From positions 32,283-96,282 of the forward strand of contig CACPCZ010000001.1 of assembly GCA_902632555.1 (NCBI GenBank): a stretch of DNA of 64,000 nucleotides, read 5' to 3'. Below, in pieces: positions 3,567 to 48,135 of the stretch (its first letter is position 1; each line of letters starts with the position of its first letter). The position numbers were made by a program, and so were the translations under genes. The notes beneath the pieces were generated by a model. It was not told the DNA's origin, did not search any database, and was given only the letters and a program-made list of their open reading frames with translations. The DNA is from an uncultured SAR86 cluster bacterium. Lineage in GTDB: Bacteria; Pseudomonadota; Gammaproteobacteria; Magnimaribacterales; D2472.

Positions 3567-4201
3567 TGACAGTTAAGAAAAATATATTAATTATTATAAT
3601 TTTTATAGCTACAGTACTGAGCCTGTTTATTAATAAGCTTACAACACCAAGAGTTCTTAGCACCAATGAGCTTTTGATAAATGGACTATTCTTATTTGAG
3701 CAACCTAAATCGATTTCAGATTTTACATTTTTTTCTGGAACTGATGATGAATTTAAAAAGTCGGATTTGTTGGGAAAATGGACCTTAATATATTTTGGCT
3801 TTACCAGATGTCCAGATGAATGCCCAACAACAATGTACCAAATGTCAAAATTAATTAAAGTTTTAGATGAAAAGGAATTTCCATTGGAAAACAAACAATG
3901 GGTTCTAATTTCCATCGATCCTGAAAGAGATAACTCAATAGATATAGATCAATATGCCAAAGGTTTTGATAAAAGATTTATTGGAGCTGTAGGCAGTAGA
4001 CCGATGTTAATAAATGTTGCGACACAACTTTCTGTTAACAATGTCATGCCAGATAAAGATTCTAGTGATCATTCGCACCTAGATAACCATGTAAACAATA
4101 TTATTCTAATGGACCCAAATGGAAATTTTGCAGGAGTATTTAGACCGCCTTTCGATATCTCAAGATTGTCTCTTACTTATCAGTCAGTTACACAAGATTA
4201 A
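3563..4201 (+). CDS. SCO1/SenC copper chaperone
   Basis: N-terminal anchor, thioredoxin-like fold with the CPDECP (CxxxC) motif and a downstream His (DHS). Confidence 0.85.
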   Translation: MMTVKKNILIIIIFIATVLSLFINKLTTPRVLSTNELLINGLFLFEQPKSISDFTFFSGTDDEFKKSDLLGKWTLIYFGFTRCPDECPTTMYQMSKLIKVLDEKEFPLENKQWVLISIDPERDNSIDIDQYAKGFDKRFIGAVGSRPMLINVATQLSVNNVMPDKDSSDHSHLDNHVNNIILMDPNGNFAGVFRPPFDISRLSLTYQSVTQD

Positions 4202-5031: not shown

Positions 5032-6030
5032 TTAAATTTGAATTATTACCTTGCCCTTGGCTTTTCTATTTTGTAGATGAGAAATCGCATCAGCAGCATT
5101 GATAAGAGAGAATTTATCAGAAACTTCAGGAGCAATTTTTCCATTAACATGAAGGTTAAATATTTCCTTAAAATTTGCTACATTTCCTGACGGATCGAGT
5201 CCAGTCCACGCGCCCCAAAAAACTCCAACTATTTGACATCCTTTGAGCAAAGTTAAATTTAATGGAATCTTTGGTATTTCTCCTGCAGCAAAACCTATTA
5301 CTAAATATCTCCCTTCCCAAGCTATAGCTCTCAATGCTGGTTCTGAATAACCTGAACCAACAGGATCATAAATAACATTAGCACCTACACCACCGGTAAG
5401 CTCTTTAATCTTTGCAGATAACTCTTTTTGTTGGTCTCTAGTTAAATCACCTGTGGGGTAAATAAATCCTTGATCAGCACCATGCTGCATACAGATATCA
5501 ACCTTTTCTTGTGTTGATGCTGCTGCAATAACATTTGCGCCCATTGCTTTTCCAAGTTCAACTGTAGCTAATCCAACACCGCCAGCAGCTCCAAGAACCA
5601 ATAAAGTTTCACCTTTTTTAAGTGCAGCCCTCTGTTTTAATGCATACAAAGATGTACCATAGGTCATGGGTAGAGCAGCTGCAGTTTCAAAATCCATTGA
5701 GTCAGGTATTTTCATCACAGCATTTTCGTGTGCGACAATTTTCTCAGCAAAGGCACCGAGACCAAGCATTGCAACAACTCTGTCTCCTACTTTTAAGTTT
5801 TCAACACCCTCGCCAACTTCGGTTATTGTTCCAGCAGACTCGCCACCTGGCGTGAATGGAAGTTCTGGTTGAAATTGATATAGTCCTTGTATCATCAATA
5901 CATCAGGAAAATTAACACTAGCTGCTTTATTATCAATCATTACATGATTTGGTAATAATTCTGGATCAGGTATATCGTTTATTTGAAGTTTATCTGGCAT
6001 ACCTAGTTCAATACACTGCAATGCTTTCAT
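5032..6030 (-). CDS. NADPH:quinone oxidoreductase / zinc-type alcohol dehydrogenase superfamily (MDR)
   Basis: GroES-like N-terminal domain and the Rossmann motif LVLGAAGGVGLATVELGK. Length is 332 aa. Confidence 0.8.
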   Translation of the reverse strand: MKALQCIELGMPDKLQINDIPDPELLPNHVMIDNKAASVNFPDVLMIQGLYQFQPELPFTPGGESAGTITEVGEGVENLKVGDRVVAMLGLGAFAEKIVAHENAVMKIPDSMDFETAAALPMTYGTSLYALKQRAALKKGETLLVLGAAGGVGLATVELGKAMGANVIAAASTQEKVDICMQHGADQGFIYPTGDLTRDQQKELSAKIKELTGGVGANVIYDPVGSGYSEPALRAIAWEGRYLVIGFAAGEIPKIPLNLTLLKGCQIVGVFWGAWTGLDPSGNVANFKEIFNLHVNGKIAPEVSDKFSLINAADAISHLQNRKAKGKVIIQI

Positions 6031-9085: not shown

Positions 9086-9086
9086 T

Positions 9087-9181
9087 TTATTACTAACAAA
9101 TATTATAGGTACTTGGGGGGAATAATTATATATGTAGAGGTGATAATTATGTACCTATAATATTAGCTTTGTTAGCAATAA
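9087..9181 (-). promoter_or_regulatory. extended imperfect hairpin in the pckA 5' leader (possible translational control element, operator palindrome or bidirectional terminator)
   Basis: Hand-paired stems are 9087-9100 with 9169-9181, 9100-9112 with 9151-9163, and 9122-9129 with 9143-9150. There is a 13-nt apical loop and a C6-containing bulge. The base of the stem lies 2 nt from the pckA ATG. Confidence 0.4.
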
Positions 9182-9306
9182 TTCGAATTACTATGTAGTG
9201 AAGTAAAATATATGAGCACTAAAAAGTCAATTATTTTAATAAATCCTTTAAAATAGGCATTTTGAGATAATAATTCTTGTAGTTTTGCTACAAATATATA
9301 TAAAAT

Positions 9307-16634: not shown

Positions 16635-16860
16635 TTTTTTCTAGCTCTGAAAGTCTTTTTTCTAAGTCTTCTATGATTTTCTTAAGATTGAGATATTTTG
16701 ATCTTTTAATAAAACCACTTTGCTCAATTATGTTTTCTATCTGTGGAGCAATATTTTTTTCTACATTTGAGAGAATATCTTTAGGTATTAATTTGCTGAA
16801 ACTTTTAAGTTCTTTTTCAATAATACTTTTAATTGCACTTGAAAGATCTTCGTTAGTCAT
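16621..16860 (-). CDS. ubiK: ubiquinone biosynthesis accessory factor UbiK (BMFP/YqiC-like coiled coil)
   Basis: 79-aa coiled-coil protein whose C-terminus (EDLEKRLSELEK) resembles the E. coli YqiC C-terminus (LEQRISELEN). Its start overlaps the yigB-like stop by 8 nt. Confidence 0.55.
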   Translation of the reverse strand: MTNEDLSSAIKSIIEKELKSFSKLIPKDILSNVEKNIAPQIENIIEQSGFIKRSKYLNLKKIIEDLEKRLSELEKTKVD

Positions 16861-21418: not shown

Positions 21419-22570
21419 TTATGAAATCTCTGAAACTTTATCTGTTCTTTCCCAGGTAAGATCAATATCTGTTCTTCCAAAATGACCGTATGCTGCAGTT
21501 GGAAGATAAATAGGTCTCTTAAGATCAAGCATATTAATGAGACTTTTAGGCCTTAAATCAAAATGCTCCTCAACGATTTTTTCAATAGCTTCTTTAGAAA
21601 TTTTTTCACTATTAAAAGTATTAACATTTATTGAAGTTGGTCTTGCTACCCCGATAGCATAAGAAACTTGAATTTCGCAGTAGTCAGCAAGTCCAGCAGC
21701 AACAATATTTTTTGCAACATATCGTGCCGCATAAGCTGCTGATCTATCAACCTTTGATGGATCTTTGCCAGAAAAAGCACCACCGCCATGTCTAGCCATA
21801 CCTCCATATGTATCTACAATAATTTTTCTTCCAGTTAAACCACAATCGCCTACTGGTCCTCCAATAACGAATTTGCCAGTTGGGTTAATAAAAATTTTAG
21901 TTGAATCAAGTATCCATTCACTTGGTACTATTGGTTTAATGATATTTTCCATTACGCCTTCTTTGATTTCATCCTGACTGACATCCTCGTCATGTTGTGT
22001 TGATAAAACAATTGCAGATAAACCCTCAATTGTTTTGCCATCATCTGAATATATTGCACTGACTTGACTTTTAGCATCTGGCCTTAGCCATGGAAGACCA
22101 TTCTCTTTCATAACATCAGCCTGTTTTTTAACTAATCTATGAGATAAGTCAATAGGAAGCGGCATTAGGGACTCTGTCTCAGTACACGCATAACCGAACA
22201 TAAGACCTTGATCACCGGCACCTTGTTCGAGATTTTCTCCCTCTCCTTCAGTAACTCCTTGAGAAATATCAGGAGACTGCTCAAAAACCAAATTTGTAAA
22301 TTTACAAGAATCACCATTAAAACCGTATTCATCAGTATCATATCCAATTTCATTTATTGTTTTTCTTACAACTGGTTCCAGATCAGGACTGCCCGTAGAA
22401 GTAATTTCCCCTGCAATAAAGACCATATTATTTTTAATCATAGTTTCGCAAGCGACCCTACTATTTGGATCTTCAGCTAAATATGCATCAAGAATGGCAT
22501 CCGAAATCTGATCGCATACTTTATCTGGATGTCCTGCAGATACTGATTCCGATGTAAATATATAACTCAT
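21419..22570 (-). CDS. metK: S-adenosylmethionine synthetase
   Basis: Motifs [52 protein letters not shown] lies upstream. Confidence 0.97.
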
Positions 22571-22681: not shown

Positions 22682-24721
22682 ATGCTTTTGTCTACAAAAA
22701 TATTATTATCATTTAAACCAGAGGTTATTCAATTGCATCAATTAGACCATATAAATGTTCTTAGATTTTTGTCAGCTGATGCTGTACAAAAGGCAAAGTC
22801 TGGACATCCAGGTATGCCTATGGGGATGGCTGAAATAGCTACTGCTTTATGGAGCAAACACCTTAAACACAATCCTTCAAATCCAACCTGGTTCAACAGG
22901 GACAGGTTTGTTTTATCAAATGGTCATGGCTCGATGCTTTTATATAGCTTATTGCACTTGACTGGATATAAGCTTTCAATGGAAGACATTAAGGACTTTA
23001 GACAATTAAAATCAAAAACTCCTGGACATCCAGAGTACGATATAGACATTGGTGTTGAAACAACCACAGGACCTTTAGGTCAAGGGATTGCAAATGCAGT
23101 TGGCATGGCAATTTCAGAAAAAATATTGGCTGCTGAATTCAATAAAGAGGATATAAAGCCTATTGACCATTTTACATATGTTTTTTTAGGAGACGGTTGT
23201 TTAATGGAAGGGATATCACATGAGGCATGTTCATTTGCAGGAACACATAATCTTGGAAAATTAATTTGTTTTTATGATGAAAATGGTATTTCGATAGATG
23301 GCGAAATAAAAAACTGGTTCACAGACGATTCTGTTGATAGATTCAAAAGCTATGGTTGGCAAACAATCTGTGTGGATGGCCATAACGTTGATGAGATTGA
23401 TAATGCTATCAAAAAGGCAAAAGAGGAACCTAATAAACCTTCTATGATATTTTGTAAAACAACAATTGGTTTCGGTTCTCCAAATAAAGCAGGTACTGCT
23501 GATGTTCATGGCGCACCATTAGGAGAAGAAGAAATTGAAAAAACAAGAGAGGCACTTGGTTGGAGTTATCCGCCATTTGAAGTTCCTCAAGAAGTATATG
23601 ATTTTTGGGACTCAAAAAATTCTGGGGCTGAGTTAAATTCAGATTGGGATAATCTAATAAAAACATATCAAGATAATTATCCAAATGATTCATCCGAGTT
23701 ACTTAGAAGAATCGATGCAGCGATGCCAAATAACCTCCAAACAAAATTTGAAGAATTTCTTCATGATTGTTGTTCAAATGATTCCTCCATGGCAACAAGA
23801 AAAGCATCTAAGGTATGCTTAGATTTTTTTGTGGAAGAAATGCCTGAACTTATAGGTGGTTCAGCAGATTTAACTCCATCAAATAATACATTTTCTGCTT
23901 CAAGTACTACATTCTCGAACGAAAACCCATCAGGAAATCATATTAATTACGGGGTCAGAGAATTTGGGATGTCAGCTATCATGAATGGCATGGTTCTTCA
24001 TGGAGGCATAAAGCCCTATGGTGCAACTTTTTTAGTTTTCACCGATTATGCAAGAAATGCAGTCAGACTTTCAGCCCTAATGGGGTTGCCAAATATATTT
24101 GTTTATACACATGATTCTGTTGCGCTTGGTGAAGACGGACCTACTCACCAACCTATTGAACATATGGTAACTTTGAGGTCAACACCCAATTTAAATAATT
24201 GGAGGCCAGCAGATCTAGTTGAAACTGCAGTTGCTTGGAAAGCTGCTGTTAGCTCAAATAAAACACCAACTTGCTTAATTTTTAGTAGACAAGGAACAGA
24301 TCCTATTAAACGAACATCCGAACAAGTTTCCTGTATTGAAAAGGGAGGCTATTTGCTTGAAGAAAATGAAAAACCAGACCTAACAATTATCGGAACTGGA
24401 AGCGAAGTTCAGTTAGTTCAAGATGCATCAGAAGAACTAAAAAATATATCAATTAAAGCAAACGTTGTTTCAATGCCATCTTTAGATATTTTCCTAGAGC
24501 AAACTAATGAATATCGGAATACGGTTATCAATCCGAATAGACCAGTGCTCGTAGTGGAATGTGCTCACCCAAATTCTTGGTATAGAATTTTAAACAGAAA
24601 CGATAAAGTAATAGGGATAGAAACCTTTGGAGAATCTGCACCTGGTAGTCAATTACTAGATCATTTTGGTTTTAATAAGACAAACGTAATTGAGACCGCA
24701 AAATCATTAATTAATGATTAA
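22682..24721 (+). CDS. tkt: transketolase
   Basis: Motifs SGHPGMPMG, GDGCLMEG and THDSVALGEDGPTHQPIEH. The track start at 22682 adds about 17 non-conserved residues. An in-frame TTG at 22733, preceded by GAGG 8 nt upstream, is the more likely start. Confidence 0.93.
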   Translation: MLLSTKILLSFKPEVIQLHQLDHINVLRFLSADAVQKAKSGHPGMPMGMAEIATALWSKHLKHNPSNPTWFNRDRFVLSNGHGSMLLYSLLHLTGYKLSMEDIKDFRQLKSKTPGHPEYDIDIGVETTTGPLGQGIANAVGMAISEKILAAEFNKEDIKPIDHFTYVFLGDGCLMEGISHEACSFAGTHNLGKLICFYDENGISIDGEIKNWFTDDSVDRFKSYGWQTICVDGHNVDEIDNAIKKAKEEPNKPSMIFCKTTIGFGSPNKAGTADVHGAPLGEEEIEKTREALGWSYPPFEVPQEVYDFWDSKNSGAELNSDWDNLIKTYQDNYPNDSSELLRRIDAAMPNNLQTKFEEFLHDCCSNDSSMATRKASKVCLDFFVEEMPELIGGSADLTPSNNTFSASSTTFSNENPSGNHINYGVREFGMSAIMNGMVLHGGIKPYGATFLVFTDYARNAVRLSALMGLPNIFVYTHDSVALGEDGPTHQPIEHMVTLRSTPNLNNWRPADLVETAVAWKAAVSSNKTPTCLIFSRQGTDPIKRTSEQVSCIEKGGYLLEENEKPDLTIIGTGSEVQLVQDASEELKNISIKANVVSMPSLDIFLEQTNEYRNTVINPNRPVLVVECAHPNSWYRILNRNDKVIGIETFGESAPGSQLLDHFGFNKTNVIETAKSLIND

Positions 24722-25868
24722 TCTTACCTCAATAGATTTAACCAATAAAAATCTTGTTATGAGGGTTGATATGAATGTGCCACTTAAAGATGGAACTGTT
24801 CTTGATGCTACCAGGATAGAAGCATGTTTACCGTCTATTGAGTACGCGCTAAAAAATAAGGCAAAGATTCTACTTATAAGTCATCTTGGAAGACCATCTG
24901 AAGGAAATTTTGATGAAAAATTTTCCTTAAGACCAGTTGCAGAGCATCTTTCAACAATAATTAACCAATGTTGTGAGTTAATAGATAGTCCAGAATCAAA
25001 TAAAATTTTTAATAGCAATTCAGATGTTCAACTTCTTGAAAATATAAGATTTTTTAATGGAGAAAAAATAAACTCAAATAAGCTTGGACAGACGCTCGCT
25101 AACCTTGGAGATATATATGTATTTGACGCTTTTGGAACTGCGCACAGAGAACAGGCCTCTACTCATTCAGCAATTGAGCAATCAAAGATTGCATGTGCGG
25201 GGCTACTACTTGAAAAAGAGAATAATTTTCTTACAAAGGCACTAAATAATTATGAAGATCCATACGTTGCTGTTATTGGTGGAGCAAAAGTATCGACAAA
25301 GCTTGAATTAATTCAGCATATTAATTGTGTTGCTAAAAATATAATTGTTGGTGGAGGCATTGCTAATACTTTTATTAGAGCTGCTGGTTTTAATGTTGGA
25401 AATTCTTTAATTGAAGAATCTATGATCGGAGTTGCAAAAGAAATTTTAAGCGACGGTAGAATTCTTTTACCTAAAAAAGTAATAACGTCAAAAACTTTTG
25501 AAGGAGAAAATATACAAGAAAAATTCATTGAAGAAATCGAAAATGATGACATGATTTTAGATTTATGTATTGAAAAAGATATCTACGAAATACTAGCTTC
25601 ATCTAAGACAATTCTTTGGAACGGACCAATGGGTGTCTTTGAAAATAAATTATTTGAGAAGGGAACAAAAGATATATCTGAAGCTATTGCAAAATCGGAT
25701 GCATTTTCAATCGCCGGAGGTGGAGAAACATTATCCGCTATCAATAAATATATTAATTCAGATGATGTATCATATTGTTCTACAGGTGGAGGAGCATTCC
25801 TTGAGTTTATGGAAGGTAAAATCCTTCCATCAATTAAAGCTTTAAATGCTAAAAATAAGGAGGGATAA
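24714..25868 (+). CDS. pgk: phosphoglycerate kinase
   Basis: Motifs RVDMNVP, SHLGRP, FDAFGTAHR and STGGGAFLEF. Confidence 0.95.
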   Translation: MINLTSIDLTNKNLVMRVDMNVPLKDGTVLDATRIEACLPSIEYALKNKAKILLISHLGRPSEGNFDEKFSLRPVAEHLSTIINQCCELIDSPESNKIFNSNSDVQLLENIRFFNGEKINSNKLGQTLANLGDIYVFDAFGTAHREQASTHSAIEQSKIACAGLLLEKENNFLTKALNNYEDPYVAVIGGAKVSTKLELIQHINCVAKNIIVGGGIANTFIRAAGFNVGNSLIEESMIGVAKEILSDGRILLPKKVITSKTFEGENIQEKFIEEIENDDMILDLCIEKDIYEILASSKTILWNGPMGVFENKLFEKGTKDISEAIAKSDAFSIAGGGETLSAINKYINSDDVSYCSTGGGAFLEFMEGKILPSIKALNAKNKEG

Positions 25869-25871
25869 AAT

Positions 25872-26879
25872 ATGACTTTAGAAGAAATAGCAAATTATAT
25901 TGTTTCAGACGGTAAGGGTATTTTGGCAGCTGACGAGAGCAATCCTACTTGTGGTAAAAGATTTGATTCTATTGGCGTAGAGTCAACTGAAGAAAACAGA
26001 AGAGATTACAGAGAAATGTTATTCAGGTCTGAAGGCATGAAGGGAAATATTGGCGGAGTAATATTATTTGATGAAACAATACGACAGGCAGCCTCTGATG
26101 GCACTCTTTTGAGAGATCTAATATCTAGTCAAGGAGCCCTACCGGGCATCAAAGTTGATAAAGGACTTCAGCAAATTGAGAATTGCCCAGGCGAGACCGT
26201 GACAGTTGGCCTTGATGGTCTTAGCGAAAGATTGAAAGAATATGCTGAGATGGGAGCAAAATTCACTAAATGGCGAGCAGTAATTAATATCGGAGAAGGT
26301 ATCCCAACTGATAAATGTATTAATGCAAATATGGATGCTCTTGCGCAGTATGCAAAATGTGCACAAGATAATGGGATGGTTCCTATTGTTGAGCCAGAAG
26401 TTCTAATGGATGGCGATCATTCAATAGAAGATTGCTACGACGCTACTGATAGATCTCTTAATGCCTTGTTTGAACATCTAGAAAAACATGGAGTCAACTT
26501 AAAAGGAACGCTATTAAAACCAAATATGGTTACATCTGGTTCAAATTGCCCTACTCAAGCTGGGATTGATGAAGTCGCAAAAAAAACTATTGATGTTCTC
26601 TCCAAGAACGTACCTCAAGAACTACCAGGAATAGCATTTTTATCTGGCGGACAATCAGATGTTTTAGCAACTGCGCACCTAGATGCTATGAACAAAATAG
26701 GTGGATTTTCTTGGAAACTAAGCTTTTCTTATGGACGTGCCTTACAAGCTGCTGCTCTTAAAGCTTGGGGAGGAAAACCTGAAAATGTTTTTATATCCCA
26801 GGATGAACTATCTCATAGAGCAGAGATGAATAAATTAGCATCTCTTGGTCAATGGGAAGAAGATCTAGAAGACAGATAG
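25872..26879 (+). CDS. fba: fructose-bisphosphate aldolase, class I
   Basis: Motifs GILAADES, the Schiff-base region LLKPNMV, and LSGGQS. Length is 335 aa. Confidence 0.9.
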   Translation: MTLEEIANYIVSDGKGILAADESNPTCGKRFDSIGVESTEENRRDYREMLFRSEGMKGNIGGVILFDETIRQAASDGTLLRDLISSQGALPGIKVDKGLQQIENCPGETVTVGLDGLSERLKEYAEMGAKFTKWRAVINIGEGIPTDKCINANMDALAQYAKCAQDNGMVPIVEPEVLMDGDHSIEDCYDATDRSLNALFEHLEKHGVNLKGTLLKPNMVTSGSNCPTQAGIDEVAKKTIDVLSKNVPQELPGIAFLSGGQSDVLATAHLDAMNKIGGFSWKLSFSYGRALQAAALKAWGGKPENVFISQDELSHRAEMNKLASLGQWEEDLEDR

Positions 26880-37773: not shown

Positions 37774-39242
37774 TGATTTTGAAGGATCTCTTTGTTGCCT
37801 TTTCTGCAGGATTCGTTGGTATTTTTGCATTTGCTCCATTCTCTTTAAAATTTTTAATTTTTATATCTTATGGCTACATAATTTATATCCTCATTAACAA
37901 CAAAAAAAGATTATTTTTAAAGCTGTTTTTTTGGGGAATTAGTCATTGGGGTTTTGGGATGTCTTGGATAATAGTAAGTGTTTACTATTATGGAGAAACA
38001 TCTATAGCAGTTGCTTCTGCAATATATATATTATTAACAATAATATTATCTTTAGTATTTACGTGCCCTCTTCTACTAATCAAATACATTAATAATAAGA
38101 TTGGAAATTATGATCAAATCAAACAAGCTTTATTAGTATCATCCCTATTGCTAATTAGTGAATTTAGTAGAGAAATCTTTTTAAATGGTGTTCCTTGGTT
38201 GATACCAGGCAATGTTTTTCTTGATACATATGCGCAAAACATTTATCCAATACTTGGCGCAGCATTTGGGTCATATTTAATTTACTTTATTACATCAATA
38301 GTTATAACAAACACAAATAATAAAAAAGTTTCATTTTTGTTTCTTGTTATCGGTATTGTATTGATGTTTCCACAAAAATTTGTGCAGCAAAATGGAGAAA
38401 TACCTATTTCAATTATTCAACCCTCTTCAGACCCTTTTGATAAATATAAGCCTGGTTATTATTCTTTTATCGAAAATAATTTATTAGATCTAATTAAAAA
38501 AAGCTCAACAGAAAGCAAGATGGTGGTTATACCTGAGGCAGAGCTTCCATATCCTACAAATGACTATAGATTTAACTCCTTTATAGAGAAAACTAAAATA
38601 AAAGATAGATTGGTAATGGGAGCATGGTTTATTGATAATAACGAACTTTACAACACTATTTATTATCCAAAAAAAGAAATTCTCTATAAAAAAGTTCATT
38701 TAGTCCCTTTTGGTGAATATATCCCATTTATAACAAAACTTCGCGGATTAATAGACTTTTTTGATCTCCCAATGTCGAATGTAATCCCTGGTCCTGAACT
38801 ACAAGAAAATATGCGACTTATCCAGGATTATGAAGTAGCAACGCCAATTTGTTTTGATATTGCTTTTCCAAACACAGTTAGAAAAATGAACATAAGTTCT
38901 TTTTTAATAATAAATATATCTAATGATACTTGGTTTGGAGATTCAATTGGTCCTTATCATCATCTTAGCAAAGCTAGGATAAGAGCAATAGAAAATAATA
39001 AATGGTTAATAAGAGCTACAAATAATGGATTTTCTGCAATTATTGATAATAATGGGACAATAGTTGACAAAACTAAAAAGAATATTACCGGTATTCTTGA
39101 GGGTAAAGTAAACTTAATAGGAGAAAGATCAATTTTCAACAAATTTGGTTATTATTTAACAAAAATATTACCATTTTTGATGATTTTGGTATTATTAATT
39201 AATAGATTATGTACATTACGAAAAAATTTATCCCAATCATAG
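37773..39242 (+). CDS. lnt: apolipoprotein N-acyltransferase
   Basis: An N-terminal polytopic domain and a C-terminal CN-hydrolase domain with the E/K/C triad context (VIPEAELP, KVHLVPFGEYIP, ATPICFDIAF). Confidence 0.85.
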   Translation: MILKDLFVAFSAGFVGIFAFAPFSLKFLIFISYGYIIYILINNKKRLFLKLFFWGISHWGFGMSWIIVSVYYYGETSIAVASAIYILLTIILSLVFTCPLLLIKYINNKIGNYDQIKQALLVSSLLLISEFSREIFLNGVPWLIPGNVFLDTYAQNIYPILGAAFGSYLIYFITSIVITNTNNKKVSFLFLVIGIVLMFPQKFVQQNGEIPISIIQPSSDPFDKYKPGYYSFIENNLLDLIKKSSTESKMVVIPEAELPYPTNDYRFNSFIEKTKIKDRLVMGAWFIDNNELYNTIYYPKKEILYKKVHLVPFGEYIPFITKLRGLIDFFDLPMSNVIPGPELQENMRLIQDYEVATPICFDIAFPNTVRKMNISSFLIINISNDTWFGDSIGPYHHLSKARIRAIENNKWLIRATNNGFSAIIDNNGTIVDKTKKNITGILEGKVNLIGERSIFNKFGYYLTKILPFLMILVLLINRLCTLRKNLSQS

Positions 39243-39814
39243 TTTTGGGACTTTCATTATCATTTTTATTACCGGCAAACACTGATAAAACAAATCCCAA
39301 TAAGATAAAGCAACGATTATTTGAAAATACCAACAGTCCTGAATTAGTAGTTGATATTTCAGAACAAAGGCTTTATCTAGTTCAAAATAAACTTGTTCTT
39401 AAAAGTTATCCTATTTCGTCATCTAAGTTTGGAGAGGGCAGTATTGAAAATTCCTTTAAAACACCGCTAGGAATGCATCAAATCAAAGAAAAAATTGGAG
39501 AAGATGTTGAAGAAAATACCATTTTCATATCTCGAGTAGATACTCAAAAAAAAGCAGATATTATAAAAAATACCTTTGATTCTGATAATGATTTTGTAAC
39601 AAGTAGAATTTTATGGCTAGATGGTATGGAAGAAGGAATAAACAAAGGGAAGGGTATCGATTCTTATGATCGATATATCTATATTCATGGCACACAGGAA
39701 GAGGGATTAATTGGCACAAAAGCATCTCATGGATGTATCAGAATGTTTAATAACGATGTTATTGAGCTTTTTAAAAAGGTAAAAGAAGGGACAAAAGTTC
39801 TAATAAAGGCATAA
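39209..39814 (+). CDS. L,D-transpeptidase (YkuD) family protein
   Basis: Signal peptide and the catalytic motif IHGTQEEGLIGTKASHGCIRM. Confidence 0.7.
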   Translation: MYITKKFIPIIVLGLSLSFLLPANTDKTNPNKIKQRLFENTNSPELVVDISEQRLYLVQNKLVLKSYPISSSKFGEGSIENSFKTPLGMHQIKEKIGEDVEENTIFISRVDTQKKADIIKNTFDSDNDFVTSRILWLDGMEEGINKGKGIDSYDRYIYIHGTQEEGLIGTKASHGCIRMFNNDVIELFKKVKEGTKVLIKA

Positions 39815-39826
39815 TTTACTTTAAAA

Positions 39827-41980
39827 CTAAAAATTATTCGCAACTGAGGACATTTCAAAGCCTAATTTCTCTTTTCTTTGATCTTTTTCAGGTGCGTCAC
39901 CTAGCCTTTGGCTGGTTTCAGCCAGCTTTACAAGCATATCGCTTGGCTTGTATACGTCATTTTTAGTTAATTCTTGATATTTCTTTAGTTTTTCAACAAC
40001 TACATCTAAACCCATTGCGTTGGCATGATGCATTGGTCCACCTCTCCAAATTGGAAAACCATAACCATTTATATATACGACATCTATATCTACAGCTCGC
40101 TGTGCAACACCTTCTGAGAGAATATCAGCTCCTTCATTAATAAGAGCTAGAATACATCTATCAACAATTTCCTCATCTGATATATCTCTTCTTGTAAATC
40201 CATTTTCCTGTGATATTTTCTCGTATAATGCTTCATTTTCAGGTGCTGCATTTGGAGCCCTTGAGCCTTCAGAATAATTGTAATAACCCTTTCCATTTTT
40301 TTGACCAAATCTGTTTTGTTCACATAGTTCATCGCCAATTTTTGCGTGTAGAGGAGATTCTTTACCACTGAGCTTCCTTGCTCTCCATCCTAGATCTAGA
40401 CCAACAAGGTCCATCATTCTAAAAGGACCCATATTTAATCCAAAGGATTCTAATGCCTGATCAATTTGGTTGGGGAGGGCGCCTTCAAGCAATAACATAT
40501 TTGCTTGAGCTGTATATCCGAACAACATTCTGTTACCGATAAAACCTGGAGCATTTAACGAGACAACAGCAGCTTTTTTAAGCTTTTTACCTATTGCCAT
40601 GACACTTGCCAAAGTTTCATTAGAAGTCTCTTCACCTCTCACTACTTCAAGTAATCGCATAATGTTTGCAGGACTAAAGAAGTGAGTACCTACTACCAAT
40701 CCAGGCCTTTTAGTTACTGATGCAATAGAATCAATATCTAAACCTGAAGTATTACTAGCTAAAATCGCATCCGGTTTCACTTGCTCATCTAGAGCCTTAA
40801 ATATTTCATGCTTGAGCTCAAGATTTTCATATACTGCCTCAATAACGATGTCGCAATCTGCTACTCCCTCATAATCTAATCCAGAACTTACAAGACCAAA
40901 AACATTGTCTTTTTGATCAGGAGTAAGTCTTCCTTTTTTTACCATAAATTCATAATTTTTCTCGATGACAGAAATACCTCGCTTAAGGTTTTCTTCATCC
41001 TGATCTATAACATGGACTGGGATACCAGCATTTGCAAAGCACATTGCAATACCACCACCCATTGTTCCTGATCCTATAATTCCAGCTTTTTTAATTTCTT
41101 TTACTGGTGTATCCTTTGGAACATCTGATATTTTAGAGGCAGCCCTTTCTCCAAAGAAAATATGAATCATTGCTTCCCTTTGTGGATGAAGCAAACATTC
41201 TAAAAATAATTCACCTTCTTTTTTAAGACCTTCATCAAAATCATCTAAATTAATAGCAGCTTCTACACACTTTATAATTTGGCCAGGTGCAAACTGACCT
41301 TTTCTGCCCTTGGCAGCCATTGCTTGAGCTTCTAGCAATACCTTATCATTACCTCTTGCTTCGATCATCTTGTCATTGAAATCTCGGACTTTTGGATGAT
41401 TTTCAGTAGTTTTAGACTTTTCAATAACAAATTTGATTGAATCTTCAACTACATTGTCGCTAATATCATCAATTATTCCCATATCTAAAGCTTTTTTAGC
41501 AGGTACGTGACTTCCTGAAAGCATCATTTTTAAGGCCTCACTTGGTCCGGCAAGTCTTGGAAGACGTTGTGTTCCGCCTCCGCCTGGCAAAAGGCCTAAA
41601 TTTACTTCAGGAAGGCCAACAAATGCTGTATTAGATGCAATTCTATAATTACAACATAACGCAGTTTCAAGTCCTCCACCCAGAGCAATCCCATTAATTG
41701 CTGCCACAACTGGCTTTGAACAATGCTCAAGTTTACTGAAAACCTCATTAAGGCTTACTCCTTCAACATTTCCGCCAAATTCAGATATATCTGCTCCAGC
41801 AATAAAAGCTCTACCTTTACCTGTAACAACTACCCCTACTACGCTTTCATCAGATTCGGCTTTTAGAAGACTATCGTGCAATCCCGTTCTTACACCATCA
41901 CTTAGTGGGTTAACAGGTGGATTATCAACAGTCAAAACTGCTACGTTATCTATAATTTCGAATAAAACTGTACCTTTCAA
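39827..41980 (-). CDS. multifunctional enoyl-CoA hydratase / 3-hydroxyacyl-CoA dehydrogenase (FadB/FadJ/FadN-like)
   Basis: 717 aa with a TTG start and an AGGAGA RBS. It has an N-terminal crotonase fold (FIAGADISEF, ALGGGLE) and a central GIIGSGTMGGGIA NAD-binding HACD domain. No adjacent thiolase. Confidence 0.85.
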   Translation of the reverse strand: MKGTVLFEIIDNVAVLTVDNPPVNPLSDGVRTGLHDSLLKAESDESVVGVVVTGKGRAFIAGADISEFGGNVEGVSLNEVFSKLEHCSKPVVAAINGIALGGGLETALCCNYRIASNTAFVGLPEVNLGLLPGGGGTQRLPRLAGPSEALKMMLSGSHVPAKKALDMGIIDDISDNVVEDSIKFVIEKSKTTENHPKVRDFNDKMIEARGNDKVLLEAQAMAAKGRKGQFAPGQIIKCVEAAINLDDFDEGLKKEGELFLECLLHPQREAMIHIFFGERAASKISDVPKDTPVKEIKKAGIIGSGTMGGGIAMCFANAGIPVHVIDQDEENLKRGISVIEKNYEFMVKKGRLTPDQKDNVFGLVSSGLDYEGVADCDIVIEAVYENLELKHEIFKALDEQVKPDAILASNTSGLDIDSIASVTKRPGLVVGTHFFSPANIMRLLEVVRGEETSNETLASVMAIGKKLKKAAVVSLNAPGFIGNRMLFGYTAQANMLLLEGALPNQIDQALESFGLNMGPFRMMDLVGLDLGWRARKLSGKESPLHAKIGDELCEQNRFGQKNGKGYYNYSEGSRAPNAAPENEALYEKISQENGFTRRDISDEEIVDRCILALINEGADILSEGVAQRAVDIDVVYINGYGFPIWRGGPMHHANAMGLDVVVEKLKKYQELTKNDVYKPSDMLVKLAETSQRLGDAPEKDQRKEKLGFEMSSVANNF

Positions 41981-42053
41981 AGCATTTCTCCTAAATTTTT
42001 ACGTTGTTTCTGCATTATACATAAAAAAAATGCATTTTATTTTATAAATACTG

Positions 42054-42081
42054 TTGATAATAGATTATAAATATATATAAT
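42054..42081 (+). promoter_or_regulatory. sigma70-like promoter, TTGATA-16 bp-TATAAT
   Basis: TTGATA lies at 42054-42059 and TATAAT at 42076-42081. Such hexamers are easier to hit by chance in AT-rich DNA, hence the moderate confidence. Confidence 0.4.
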
Positions 42082-42087
42082 AATTAT

Positions 42088-42163
42088 GTCAGCACTCCTC
42101 TCCCCTATTAATTTTGCTGACACTCTGGAATTATGGAGGGCATTGCCCTCCATCTCTTTTTTT
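42088..42163 (+). ncRNA. candidate small RNA or cis-acting leader (unrecognised family), about 75 nt
   Basis: Hairpin 1 is GTCAGCA/TGCTGAC (42088-42094 with 42115-42121) with a 20-nt loop containing CUCCUCUCCCCU. Hairpin 2 is the terminator. The element sits just downstream of the promoter above. Confidence 0.35.
42133..42163 (+). terminator. Rho-independent terminator
   Basis: A 9-bp stem ATGGAGGGC/GCCCTCCAT (42133-42141 with 42145-42153) with a 3-nt loop, followed by CTC and T7 (42157-42163). Confidence 0.55.
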
Positions 42164-42180
42164 AAGGAAAGGTATTTTAA

Positions 42181-42267
42181 ATGGATAAAATTAAAGATAA
42201 TATTGAATTAATTTTTTTAGTCACTATCTTTATAACTTCACTATCTGCAATTACGCCGATAAGTTAG
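42181..42267 (+). CDS. hypothetical 28-aa single-TM peptide; not in the ORF track
   Basis: My translation is MDKIKDNIELIFLVTIFITSLSAITPIS*. An AAGGAAAGG RBS lies 8 nt upstream of the ATG, and the ORF ends 12 nt before the gpx ATG. There is no comparative evidence. Confidence 0.25.
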   Translation: MDKIKDNIELIFLVTIFITSLSAITPIS

Positions 42268-42279
42268 AATTACTTTCTT

Positions 42280-42804
42280 ATGAAACAACTATTAATTTTT
42301 TCTATATCATTTTTTTCATTTAATATTTTTGCTTGCAGCAACTTGCTTGATACCGAAATGCGTATTCTTGACTCCAGTGACAAAGTTAATCTCTGTGAAT
42401 ATGAAGATAAAGTTATTCTAGTAGTAAATGTTGCGAGCAGATGTGGTTATACTTATCAATACGCATCACTTCAAACACTTTATGATAATTATAAAAGTGA
42501 TGATTTTGTAATTTTTGGAATTCCTTCAAGAGATTTTTTACAAGAGTATGCTGCTGAAGAGGACGTTGCAGAATTTTGTTCAACTGAATATGGTGTAAAT
42601 TTTCCTATGTTCGCAACTTCAAAAGTTCGAGGTAAAAAAGCAAGCCCATTTTACAAAAAACTTATTAATGAAAGTGGTGTTACTCCTTCTTGGAATTTTA
42701 ATAAGTATTTGATATCACGAGATGGAACTGTTGTTTCTACATATGGATCATCTGTAAAGCCTGATTCTGCCGAACTTATTTCTGATATAGAAAAACTTCT
42801 TTAA
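42280..42804 (+). CDS. gpx: glutathione peroxidase (Cys-type) with signal peptide
   Basis: Motifs NVASRCGYT (a TGT Cys codon, not TGA) and WNFNKYLI, with an N-terminal hydrophobic leader. Confidence 0.9.
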   Translation: MKQLLIFSISFFSFNIFACSNLLDTEMRILDSSDKVNLCEYEDKVILVVNVASRCGYTYQYASLQTLYDNYKSDDFVIFGIPSRDFLQEYAAEEDVAEFCSTEYGVNFPMFATSKVRGKKASPFYKKLINESGVTPSWNFNKYLISRDGTVVSTYGSSVKPDSAELISDIEKLL

Positions 42805-42805
42805 A

Positions 42806-43459
42806 TTATTCTCCAACGAGAACAACACTAGGCTTATTAAAAGCAAACAAACCATTATCTACGACTCCTGGAATATTATTGATTAATATTTCTAATGCTT
42901 CTGGTTCATCTATGGATAAGTTTTTTACATCAATGATTTGATTACCTTGATCAGTTAAAAATCCTTTTCTATATTCAGGCAAGCCACCCATGGCAATAAT
43001 TTTTCTGGAAACCATACTTCTACTTTCTGGAATTACTTCTATCGGCAGAGGAAAGGCACCTAGTTTTTTAACAAGCTTTGATTCATCAACAATGCATATA
43101 AACTCTTTTGAAGCAGCTGCAACAATTTTTTCTCTAGTGTGAGCACCACCACCACCTTTAATTAAAAAATTTTTGGGTGAAACTTCATCTGCTCCATCAA
43201 TATAGAAAGATACCTCATCAACGTCATTAAGATTGAATACCTCTACACCAATTTCTTTTAAAAGCTCAGATGAGACATTTGAGCTTGAAACAGCACCTTT
43301 AAAATGATTCTTTAAGCTGGATAATTCTTTGATAAAAAAATTTACTGTTGACCCAGTGCCAATTCCAATAACCATATCTTTGAAAAGTTTCTTTTCAATA
43401 TAATTTATTGCTTTCTTTGCAACACTTATCTTTGAAGCACTCATGCAGTTATAATACAA
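42806..43459 (-). CDS. rpiA: ribose-5-phosphate isomerase A
   Basis: Motifs GIGTGSTV, DGADEV and KGGGGAHTREK. Confidence 0.9.
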   Translation of the reverse strand: MYYNCMSASKISVAKKAINYIEKKLFKDMVIGIGTGSTVNFFIKELSSLKNHFKGAVSSSNVSSELLKEIGVEVFNLNDVDEVSFYIDGADEVSPKNFLIKGGGGAHTREKIVAAASKEFICIVDESKLVKKLGAFPLPIEVIPESRSMVSRKIIAMGGLPEYRKGFLTDQGNQIIDVKNLSIDEPEALEILINNIPGVVDNGLFAFNKPSVVLVGE

Positions 43460-43482
43460 GAAAATATTAGAAGTGAACCAAA

Positions 43483-45039
43483 TTGAGATTAAAAATAAAA
43501 AAAACGGGAACTTATAGATATTCTAAAAAATATCTTAAGTTAATAAAAAATGCAGAAGCATGCGTTTATGATGTTGCAATTGATTCACCCACCACTCACG
43601 CAATCAATCTTTCTTTAAAAGAAAATAATAATATTTATCTTAAAAGAGAGGATCTTCAGCCAATTTTTTCTTTCAAAAATAGAGGGGCTTATAACAAAAT
43701 TAAAAACTTATCCGATAAGAAAAAGTCTTATGGGATCATTGCTGCATCAGCCGGCAATCATGCGCAAGGCGTTGCATTAGCTTGTAAAAAATTAAAAATA
43801 GAATGCAATATTGTTATGCCTGTCACGGCTCCTGAAAATAAACTTAATTCTGTAAAAAGACTTGGAGCAAAAATAACTCAGTTTGGTGAAAATCTTGCTG
43901 AGGCACTCGTAAAGGCAGATGAAATCTCTAAAAAGAAAAAATATACTTTTGTTCATCCGTTTGACGATCCATATACAATAGCTGGTCAAGGAACGGTAGG
44001 GAAAGAAATTCTACAAGATGGTATAGATTATGATGCTGTTTTTGTACCCGTTGGAGGAGGGGGCCTGCTTGCTGGAATATCTGCATGGGTGAGACAACAT
44101 AAGAAAAAAATTAAAATAATTGGAGTTGAGGTCGATGATTCCGCCTGTTTAACAGAGGCATTGAAAAATAATAAAAGAGTATTGTTGAAGAAGGTCGGAT
44201 TATTTGCAGATGGCGTGGCCGTATCCCAAGTTGGGAAAAATAATCTTGATGTTATTAAAGAATGTGTTGACGAGGTAATGATTGTTAACATTGATGAAGT
44301 TTGTGCAGCAGTAAAAGACATTTTTGAAGATACTCGAGTATTATCAGAACCCTCTGGTGCAGTAGCTTTAGCCGGCCTCAAGAAATATTCAAAAAGAATC
44401 ACTGGAAAAAATCTTCTTGCAGTAAGCTCAGGAGCAAACATAAATTTTCAGAAGCTTGGATTTATTGTTGAAAGATCAGAATTAGGAGAAAACAGAGAAA
44501 AGATATTAAGCATAAAAATACCTGAAAAACCTGGAAGCTTTTTGAAATTAGCCAAAGTGTTTGGGAAATTATCTGTAACAGAGTTTAATTATAGGAAAGC
44601 AGACGATAAAGATGCCCTTGTATTAGTTGGAATAAGAACGTCTTCCGAAAAAAGTTTTATCAAATTAAAACAAAAACTTAGAAAGTTAAAATATAAATTC
44701 AGTGACTATACCAGTAATGAAATATCAAATGATCACCTCAGACATATGGTCGGGGGTAGGGCAAGATTAAATTCAGATTCAGGCAGTATTGAAAGAATAT
44801 TCAATGGAGAATTTCCTGAGAAGCCGGGAGCACTTCTTAATTTTCTTGAAAAATTTGGAAACAATTGGAACATATCGCTTTTCCATTATCGAAATATTGG
44901 ATCTGCATATGGAAATATATTAATAGGAATTGAAGACAAAAATTCAGATAAATCAAAACTGATAAAACATCTTGAAAAATCTGGAACTGTCTTTAAAGAG
45001 GAAAGTAAAAACAAGGCCTACTTAGACTTTCTTAAGTAA
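43483..45039 (+). CDS. ilvA: threonine ammonia-lyase, biosynthetic
   Basis: TTG start, the PLP-Lys motif FSFKNRGAYN, GNHAQGVA, and two C-terminal ACT-like regulatory repeats. Confidence 0.9.
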   Translation: MRLKIKKTGTYRYSKKYLKLIKNAEACVYDVAIDSPTTHAINLSLKENNNIYLKREDLQPIFSFKNRGAYNKIKNLSDKKKSYGIIAASAGNHAQGVALACKKLKIECNIVMPVTAPENKLNSVKRLGAKITQFGENLAEALVKADEISKKKKYTFVHPFDDPYTIAGQGTVGKEILQDGIDYDAVFVPVGGGGLLAGISAWVRQHKKKIKIIGVEVDDSACLTEALKNNKRVLLKKVGLFADGVAVSQVGKNNLDVIKECVDEVMIVNIDEVCAAVKDIFEDTRVLSEPSGAVALAGLKKYSKRITGKNLLAVSSGANINFQKLGFIVERSELGENREKILSIKIPEKPGSFLKLAKVFGKLSVTEFNYRKADDKDALVLVGIRTSSEKSFIKLKQKLRKLKYKFSDYTSNEISNDHLRHMVGGRARLNSDSGSIERIFNGEFPEKPGALLNFLEKFGNNWNISLFHYRNIGSAYGNILIGIEDKNSDKSKLIKHLEKSGTVFKEESKNKAYLDFLK

Positions 45040-47921: not shown

Positions 47922-48098
47922 GAGGCTATCAAACCAGATCACCGCCATGTGCTATACCTGAACCGAAAGTTCAGGTGGTGAATATCTTGTCAGATCAGGC
48001 TTCCCTTATAGGTATTGCACAACAAAGACAGTGGAAAATCACCTAATTATTAGTATCGGTTCAAATTTATTAGCACATTAGCAAATGAACCAGAATGT
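47922..48098 (-). ncRNA. ssrS: 6S RNA (ends uncertain by about 10 nt)
   Basis: It sits between zapA and ygfA, the classic synteny. The minus-strand sequence AUUCACCACCUGAACUUUCGGUUCAGGUAUAGCACAUGGCGGUGAUCUGG parallels the E. coli 6S 3' half (AUUCACCUUGAACCAAGGGUUCAAGGGUUACAGCCUGCGGCGGCAUCUCGG). The 5' AUGUGCUA pairs with the 3' UAGCACAU in the closing stem. A TTGACA box lies at 48118-48123. Confidence 0.8.
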
Positions 48099-48135
48099 TT
48101 AGAAAGTATAAAATAGTTGTCAAGGAAGTGAAAGA

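Follow-up and report, generated by a model that had tools for sequence, protein, structure and literature searches.

A conserved structured RNA between the divergent fadB-like and glutathione peroxidase genes of SAR86 bacteria, a candidate 5′ leader or attenuator

Results and discussion

An RNA element between divergent genes

SAR86 bacteria (Magnimaribacterales) rank among the most abundant surface-ocean bacteria. Here we describe a short RNA element encoded between a fadB-like gene and a glutathione-peroxidase-family gene (gpx) in a 64,000-nucleotide stretch of DNA from an uncultured SAR86 cluster bacterium (contig CACPCZ010000001.1; hereafter, the window), together with its counterparts in related genomes and marine metagenomes. 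On the plus strand the element consists of a promoter, a hairpin with a long C/U-rich loop (P1), a linker and a second hairpin with a U-rich tail (P2), which are followed by a small open reading frame (ORF) and by gpx (Table 1). A preliminary description of the window had proposed that a stand-alone small RNA (sRNA) is encoded here. Our results indicated that the element is a genuine structured plus-strand RNA with its own strong promoter, a terminator-like 3′ hairpin and a near-invariant C/U-rich loop.

Table 1 Features of the fadB-like/gpx region, in positions of the window
Feature	Position	Strand	Remarks
fadB-like gene (enoyl-CoA hydratase / 3-hydroxyacyl-CoA dehydrogenase)	39827..41980	-	717 aa, TTG start
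probable fadB promoter, extended -10 TGTATAAT	42014..42021	-	read from sequence
RNA promoter	42040..42081	+	-35 TTGATA 42054-42059, -10 TATAAT 42076-42081; consensus scan
hairpin P1	42088..42121	+	7-bp stem, 20-nt loop; minimum-free-energy fold
linker ACUCUGGAAUU	42122..42132	+	conserved CUCUGRAAU 42123-42131
hairpin P2 with U-rich tail, intrinsic-terminator-like	42133..42163	+	terminator scan
ribosome-binding site of small ORF AAGGAAAGG	42164..42172	+	read from sequence
small ORF, 28 aa (MDKIKDNIELIFLVTIFITSLSAITPIS)	42181..42267	+	unannotated; one predicted membrane span
gpx, glutathione-peroxidase-family gene	42280..42804	+	lipoprotein-type signal (…FACS…)

Both hairpins lie exactly where they had been described. 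In P1, GTCAGCA (42088–42094) begins six bases past the −10 hexamer and pairs with TGCTGAC (42115–42121). Its loop starts with CUCCUCUCCCCU, and the first 14 loop bases, CUCCUCUCCCCUAU (42095–42108), are almost invariant among relatives; the loop reads CUCCUCUCCCC(C)UAU in all copies, with a C-run that ranges from 4 to 8 C. In P2, ATGGAGGGC (42133–42141) pairs with GCCCTCCAT (42145–42153), which gives a 9-bp stem with six G–C pairs around the 3-nt loop AUU, and CTC plus T7 follows (42154–42163; CUCU7 in the RNA). Across copies, the loop of P2 consists of 3–8 variable bases. The predicted fold of the 80-nt RNA is exactly P1 plus P2; its energy is −25.9 kcal/mol (z = −5.4), a stability that was reached by none of 200 dinucleotide shuffles.

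The TTGATA-16-TATAAT promoter reported at 42054–42081 agrees with the sigma-70 consensus at 11 of 12 positions, and it shares the top rank among promoter-like sites in 39000–45000. An A/T-rich block (TTTATAAA, 42041–42048) lies upstream, and by its position relative to the hexamers the RNA would start near 42087–42089. Conservation is given throughout as the mean column conservation per segment over 71 genomes; for the promoter block (42040–42081) it was 0.90, and variation was limited to the two central bases of a dyad and three bases of the spacer, so that the hexamers are kept in relatives. As classes, neither promoter-like nor terminator-like sites were enriched in the region when compared with shuffled sequence. 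The scan alone therefore proves nothing, and we place the weight on the comparative data.

Distribution across SAR86 and marine metagenomes

A search with the fadB-like protein, which carries no bias towards the sequence pattern of the element, returned 74 loci, one per species and nearly all labelled SAR86. FadB identity across these loci was 68–98%, the closest being that of AH-321-C05 (98%). A covariance model of the element, derived from the copies at these loci, matched once per locus in all 71 loci that had upstream DNA, at 61–102 bits and on the strand opposite to fadB, with no match elsewhere in 775 kb. Within the window, weak matches to the covariance model (~22 bits) were obtained on both strands at 25772–25872, where a hairpin lies at the junction of ORF 24714–25868 and an aldolase gene; this is probably an ordinary terminator.

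We also scanned public metagenomes with a degenerate pattern that covered the loop core, the linker and the 5′ arm of P2, and obtained at least 120 matching stretches. Among the matches listed, 117 lie between a divergent fadB-like gene (108–208 nt away) and a downstream gpx (122–236 nt away), wherever the contig reaches that far, and a further three are GC-rich chance matches without the hairpins. The gene order was always fadB-like gene (divergent), element, small ORF and gpx, in 71 of 71 genomes and in all 117 genuine metagenome matches listed, none of which showed a second genomic context. A search for viral copies of the element found none. Our data indicate, at the level of sequence, that the element is single copy, confined to the fadB–gpx locus and conserved throughout the SAR86 sampled.

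In many independent metagenome assemblies, contigs end in the element or at its edge (L003, L144, L146, L206, L207, L209, L211 and L214), likely because the block is common to co-occurring SAR86 strains whose flanks differ. We considered whether contig starts inside the element could mark transcript ends. Their positions are scattered and the contigs carry a convergent rpiA, and we regard them as assembly breaks.

Conservation and covariation

The arms of P1 and the first 14 bases of its loop were both conserved at 0.97, the 3′ part of the loop at 0.67 and the arms of P2 at 0.95–0.96; the linker reached 0.92 in the fadB-retrieved set, which is free of pattern bias. These values can be compared with 0.63–0.65 for the first codons of fadB and gpx, 0.73 for the small ORF and 0.47–0.53 for other non-coding stretches. 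The element (0.92–0.97) is more conserved than the flanking coding DNA (0.63–0.73) and outdoes the adjacent proteins; it is the best-conserved non-coding sequence around a SAR86 peroxide-defence gene.

Hairpin pairing is kept and covaries in relatives. Among 91 distinct copies, 98.4% of stem cells were standard pairs, which compares with 38–56% when the partners were slid by 1–3 columns, and compensatory changes on both sides were found at 5 of the 7 pairs of P1 and at 2 of the 8 pairs of P2. These numbers lean towards structure, since the alignment was fitted to the model and was drawn partly from the pattern search; the compensatory variants of P1 and P2 are nonetheless already present in the fadB-retrieved set. 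Whole alternative stems of P1 occur (ACCAACA/UGUUGGU, UCCAGCA/UGCUGGA, AACAGCAA/UUGCUGUU and AUCGGCA/UGCCGAU). The core of P2, GGAGGG/CCCUCC, is almost invariant, its sole double change being GGAGAG/CUCUCC in two clades. The presence of the site in 71 of 71 SAR86 species genomes and its compensatory changes place it above chance.

The stems held 23 G·U pairs vs. 9 A·C pairs, the latter mostly terminal, and this asymmetry points to a plus-strand RNA rather than a DNA operator or a minus-strand RNA. It also bears on DNA-level conservation, which we regard as highly improbable: inverted repeats acting as protein operators of a shared fadB/gpx control region would fit a position between divergent genes, a conserved dyad in the promoter and a minus-strand promoter-like site that overlaps P1, but the G·U excess makes sense only for plus-strand RNA, the stems covary with pairing kept whereas protein operators keep their sequence, and the conserved loop and linker are not symmetric.

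The dyad mentioned above, TGATAAT-NN-ATTATAA, occupies 42055–42070 between the −35 and −10 hexamers; its half-sites are kept, its central two bases are free, and one clade carries the symmetric variant TGATATT-TA-AATATAA. It looks operator-like, and its conservation exceeds that required of a spacer, a hint that a further DNA-binding regulator may be involved. Fur- and PerR-type operators are 7-1-7 inverted repeats (TGATAATnATTATCA / TTATAATnATTATAA). The half-sites of the SAR86 dyad resemble these consensuses, but its spacing is 7-2-7, and we do not assign it to Fur, PerR or OxyR. No second copy with two or fewer mismatches occurs elsewhere in the window, and the ATAG present in the window is missing from relatives. 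The minus-strand promoter-like site reads CTGACA-17-TATAAT (42092–42064).

Two further candidates for recognition of the element were considered. A CsrA site was rejected, given that the GGA of the linker is not conserved (CUCUGAAAU, UUCUUAAAU). A PyrR-like box was also set aside: its UCCAGAG is found on the minus strand only, and the G·U asymmetry favours the plus strand.

A small membrane protein gene downstream of the RNA

The preliminary description had singled out the 299-bp gap at 41981–42279 as the largest non-coding gap of the window. By called genes this is roughly so (other large gaps of the window contain tatA, DUF1820, L28 and L31), but the gap holds a real 28-aa ORF, which leaves only ~200 bp of non-coding DNA (41981–42180). 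In 70 species genomes in which our parsing script located P2, an ATG 11–37 nt past P2 opened an ORF of 28–33 aa in every case (70/70). The ORF has a ribosome-binding site, and AAGG, AGGU or GAGG lies 6–12 nt upstream of the ATG in most relatives. The entropy of the ORF by codon position (23.0, 13.3 and 36.2 for positions 1, 2 and 3) is a coding signature, and the peptides share the pattern E…L…F…S..AI.P within one hydrophobic span, with invariant E, L, F and P and near-invariant S, A and I.

The small peptide had no Pfam match at E ≤ 10 and no NCBIfam match, and the gene calls on L001 and L002 hold no gene at its position. The usual minimum gene length of Prodigal is 90 nt, and the small ORF is 87 nt long. 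Our comparison brings to light an overlooked conserved 28-aa membrane protein that is missing from the gene calls checked. A type I toxin is an unlikely identity for this peptide, considering that the gene is single copy, syntenic throughout the order and under purifying selection and that no antisense promoter faces it. We also looked for a leader peptide within the element; an NUG codon at the base of P2 opens a frame across the terminator, but the frame ranges in length from three codons to an in-frame fusion with the small ORF and its sequence tracks the stem, so that there is no conserved upstream ORF.

The DNA between P2 and the small ORF is the least conserved of the region (0.49), and no conserved promoter is apparent in it. 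Because the small ORF follows P2 by only 11–37 nt with no promoter apparent between, we conclude that its transcription passes through the element, whose role is then at least that of a 5′ leader. The proposal of a stand-alone sRNA is not supported in this respect, and the alternative that the preliminary description had offered, that of a leader or attenuator acting in cis on the small ORF and gpx, finds better support.

With regard to gpx, the product matches Pfam GSHPx (4e-26) and an NCBIfam glutathione peroxidase model, and the exact Gpx protein of the window was found on Tara Oceans contigs. In the window gpx starts 12 nt past the stop codon of the small ORF, without a Shine–Dalgarno (SD) sequence; in relatives this distance is 1–35 nt and an SD is never present. 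The gene probably belongs to the same transcription unit as the small ORF. A −10-like hexamer (TAGAAT, TAAAAT or TATAAT) lies 6–9 nt before the gpx ATG in many lineages (window 42265–42282; L011–L084). It could reflect a leaderless gpx mRNA, or chance in AT-rich DNA.

The element as a leader or attenuator

On these grounds we interpret the element as a new, order-wide leader or attenuator RNA at the 5′ end of an operon of two genes, which encode a 28-aa membrane protein and a lipoprotein glutathione peroxidase, a reading drawn from sequence comparison in which we place about even confidence. Like an intrinsic terminator, P2 combines a GC-rich stem-loop with a U-rich tract immediately behind it; across 69 genomes its median stability is −12.5 kcal/mol, with 3–7 T in the next nine nucleotides (most often 6, and 3 in a few lineages). 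A terminator that has a strong promoter before it and the ribosome-binding site of the first gene after it suggests an attenuator, and a tail of such variable strength is what would be expected of a partial, regulated terminator. In addition, the core of P2 is frozen while P1 covaries. This is unusual for a plain terminator and would be expected if GGAGGG also pairs elsewhere.

Two such partners are available. The P1 loop can form a 6-bp pseudoknot between its CUCUCC and GGAGGG (−8.8 kcal/mol), and CUCU of the linker is able to pair with GGAG of the P2 5′ arm; each of these alternative pairings is possible in at least 99% of the sequences. The purine tract tolerates a single change, from G to A at the fifth base, which is accompanied by C to U in the 3′ arm and has arisen in each of two distinct clades. 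With this change a G·U pair with the loop becomes A–U, and the base affected is not part of the linker pairing. A substitution that improves the pairing with the loop is suggestive only, given that it comprises two events.

From these observations we propose the following mechanism. Transcription would start from the strong sigma-70 promoter at the foot of P1, and RNA polymerase would reach P2 ~45 nt later, where P2 would act as a leaky intrinsic terminator; we infer both the start site and the termination at P2. Termination would free an RNA of ~75 nt, while read-through would give the small ORF mRNA and, owing to tight spacing or coupled translation, probably also the gpx mRNA. The outcome would depend on which one of three pyrimidine segments takes the invariant GGAGGG. 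Pairing with the 3′ arm of P2 (CCCUCC) would form the terminator, whereas pairing with the P1 loop (CUCUCC, the pseudoknot) or with the linker (CUCU) would block it. A small ligand, a protein or an RNA might tip the balance between these predicted pairings. The terminated ~75-nt product may additionally act in trans as an anti-SD sRNA, and attenuation and a trans function may coexist.

Several points weigh against such a switching leader and need to be considered. The alternative pairings with loop and linker show no compensatory change, which can be attributed to the fact that the bases involved hardly vary. Neither alternative pairing comes near the stability of P2 (−15.6 kcal/mol). Trans-acting sRNAs, too, classically have a long, strictly conserved single-stranded loop beside a terminator. 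The element precedes one operon in one bacterial order, and this single context provides no gene-association clue to a ligand. Finally, a C-run of variable length, such as the 4 to 8 C of the loop, would not usually be found in a tightly packed ligand pocket.

Alternative readings of the RNA

The strongest competitor is a primary role in trans, in which an abundant ~75-nt sRNA would repress mRNA translation through its anti-SD C/U-rich loop and read-through would be a by-product or second function; we consider this possible, yet clearly on the unlikely side. The layout is that of a classic sRNA, in which a strong promoter precedes a 5′-terminal stem-loop, 14 conserved nucleotides are single-stranded, and an A/U-rich stretch leads to a GC hairpin with a U tail; the loop is conserved at 0.97 although its stem covaries. 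The best predicted duplexes of the loop (−7.6 to −12.1 kcal/mol) fall mostly at strong-SD genes of the window, namely the ADH-like gene, metK, the class-I aldolase gene and fadB; the lowest duplex energy overall, −12.4 kcal/mol, was obtained for an ABC1-kinase gene that has no obvious strong SD. Precedents exist for sRNAs with anti-SD loops that are linked both to oxidative stress and to a small-protein gene (PMC4615179, PMC8034643), and the weak, sub-threshold Rfam resemblances described below, LhrC and SorY, are sRNAs.

The complementarity of the loop to the ribosome-binding sites of the fadB-like gene (uaggagaaaug) and metK (cagggagaaaa), to which the preliminary description had drawn attention, is real, but it is generic, extending over only 5–6 bp as it would for any strong SD, and nothing beyond it was found within the 64-kb window. 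A role in trans leaves both the frozen stem of P2 and the conserved linker unexplained, the U tail is weak (3–4 T) in several lineages, and the element is never parted from the small ORF.

It was observed separately that most genes of the window lack a recognisable SD; strong ones precede only a handful, the ADH-like gene (5032–6030), metK (21419–22570), the class-I aldolase gene (25872–26879) and fadB.

A more specific form of leader would be an orphan riboswitch, where a ~65-nt pseudoknotted aptamer (P1 loop with GGAGGG) senses a molecule of peroxide or thiol stress, switches P2 and controls a SAR86-wide peroxidase operon. Glutathione, its disulfide, lipid-peroxide products and metal ions would be candidate ligands. 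The covarying P1 and the invariant loop and linker resemble riboswitch features, and P2 could provide the expression platform, but the pseudoknot is without compensatory changes, and where riboswitch aptamers are expected upstream of several related genes, the small ORF with gpx is the sole context of this one. We regard a riboswitch as improbable.

Also improbable is a passive structured 5′ untranslated region (UTR), whose hairpins would stabilise the mRNA (by protection from RNase E or RppH) or fix the level of translation, with neither switching nor activity in trans. P1 at the predicted 5′ end and the constant placement of the element in the transcription unit of the small ORF are consistent with this. 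However, stabilising hairpins need pairing only, not 14 invariant loop bases, a conserved linker and a conserved P2 sequence in species whose FadB proteins are just 66–98% identical, and the U-rich tail after P2 would go unexplained.

Comparison with known RNA families

At gathering thresholds, a search of the whole window against Rfam 15 returned only the 6S RNA (47927–48099). At E ≤ 10, with three copies as queries (that of the window, as its intergenic region, and the divergent L041 and L099), no family reached half of its threshold; the best scores vs. gathering thresholds were those of sraA (24.5 vs. 56 bits), SorY (20.1 vs. 111 bits) and LhrC (18.8 vs. 110 bits). This covariance-model search is in agreement with the initial impression that the RNA belongs to no recognised family. 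The element lies outside Rfam, and we describe it as a new RNA family, a 5′ leader or attenuator and possibly a dual-function sRNA.

The closest analogy is with the cuckoo (CcsR/NfeR, alpha-r14) sRNAs of Alphaproteobacteria, which carry CCUCCUCCC in their hairpin loops (PMC4615179). These sRNAs are co-transcribed with a small-protein gene, originating from its 5′ UTR in S. meliloti, and act in oxidative-stress defence, with a link to the glutathione pool (PMC4615179, PMC8034643). The SAR86 element shares with them a C/U-rich, anti-SD-like hairpin loop, variable stems around a fixed loop and the coupling to a small-protein gene. It differs from them in its loop sequence (CUCCUCUCCCC(C)UAU, the 9-mer CCUCCUCCC being absent from all copies), and in having one motif hairpin (P1) in a single copy, where the cuckoo RNAs have 2–4 motif hairpins and are often multi-copy. 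Its partner is a hydrophobic transmembrane protein of 28–33 aa rather than a DUF1127 protein, and its promoter is of the sigma-70 type in a gammaproteobacterium, unlike the RpoHI/HII promoter in Alphaproteobacteria. By this comparison, the SAR86 element would be an analogue of the cuckoo RNAs and not a member of the group.

Among Firmicutes, LhrC, RsaE/RoxS and FsrA/IsrR block ribosome-binding sites with UCCC or C-rich single-stranded loops and end in a terminator. The SAR86 RNA likewise has a C-rich loop followed by a terminator, and LhrC was the best Rfam near-miss on one copy. However, 18.8 vs. 110 bits indicates no homology, the phylum is another one, and those sRNAs are stand-alone with several C-rich sites.

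The size and layout of the element (a 60–80-nt leader with a covarying stem and invariant unpaired bases) recall riboswitches with a pseudoknot from loop to downstream sequence (preQ1-I, SAM-II/SAM-V and fluoride) as well as the attenuator-derived sRNAs SreA and rnTrpL. As in terminator-type riboswitches and attenuators, the 5′ arm of its terminator can pair upstream and the terminated product could act in trans. It differs from them in that there is no match in sequence or structure, the alternative pairing is without covariation and the gene context is single.

The architecture of the element is conventional. The element offers a concrete RNA for study in the one cultured strain (Ca. Magnimaribacter mokuoloeensis HIMB1674) and in existing Tara metatranscriptomes and, if it does act as a riboswitch or an anti-SD sRNA, an entry point to the regulation of oxidative-stress defence in SAR86. 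Streamlined oligotrophic marine bacteria such as SAR86 are thought to hold a small number of transcription factors and to depend on regulation at the level of RNA (PMC13198564).

The SAR86 genome literature, as accessible to us, does not mention the element. One abundant SAR86 non-coding RNA was reportedly recovered from metatranscriptomes by Dupont et al. 2012 (with Shi et al. 2009), from a region of glycolysis and pentose-phosphate genes. It might be the same RNA as our element, although the locus described differs.

Neighbouring genes and other features of the window

The protein encoded by the fadB-like gene matches Pfam ECH_1, 3HCDH_N and 3HCDH, and its divergent orientation relative to the element is kept in the 74 SAR86 genomes and the metagenome loci. 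An extended −10 (TGTATAAT) sits on the minus strand ~35 nt upstream of its TTG start. The surrounding block GCATTATACATAAAAA (42012–42027) is kept across SAR86 at 0.85, compared with 0.53–0.68 for its flanks, and as judged from sequence it probably represents the fadB promoter. An insertion of ~50 nt (…ATGCATATTTATCCTTATAAAATCGCACATTTAGCGAT…) lies between the two divergent promoters in one SAR86 subclade (L079, L041, L070, L047 and others; ~3895–3950), and the element is ~200 nt from fadB in more distant clades, vs. ~115 nt.

Elsewhere in the window, the 6S RNA gene (47927–48099, minus strand; 53.5 bits in Rfam) lies between zapA, on its upstream side, and a 5-formyltetrahydrofolate cyclo-ligase gene, which it directly precedes; this is the classic gammaproteobacterial arrangement. 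An apparent gap on the minus strand at 16635–16860 is accounted for by an ORF of ~75 aa that starts from an ATG at 16860 (MTNEDLSSAIKSIIEKELKSF…). A stretch of 221 bp at 9086–9306 is without any ORF of at least 25 aa, and has a GC content of 0.23; an inverted repeat in it, AGGTAC…GTACCT, encloses a G-rich run (TTGGGGGGAA).

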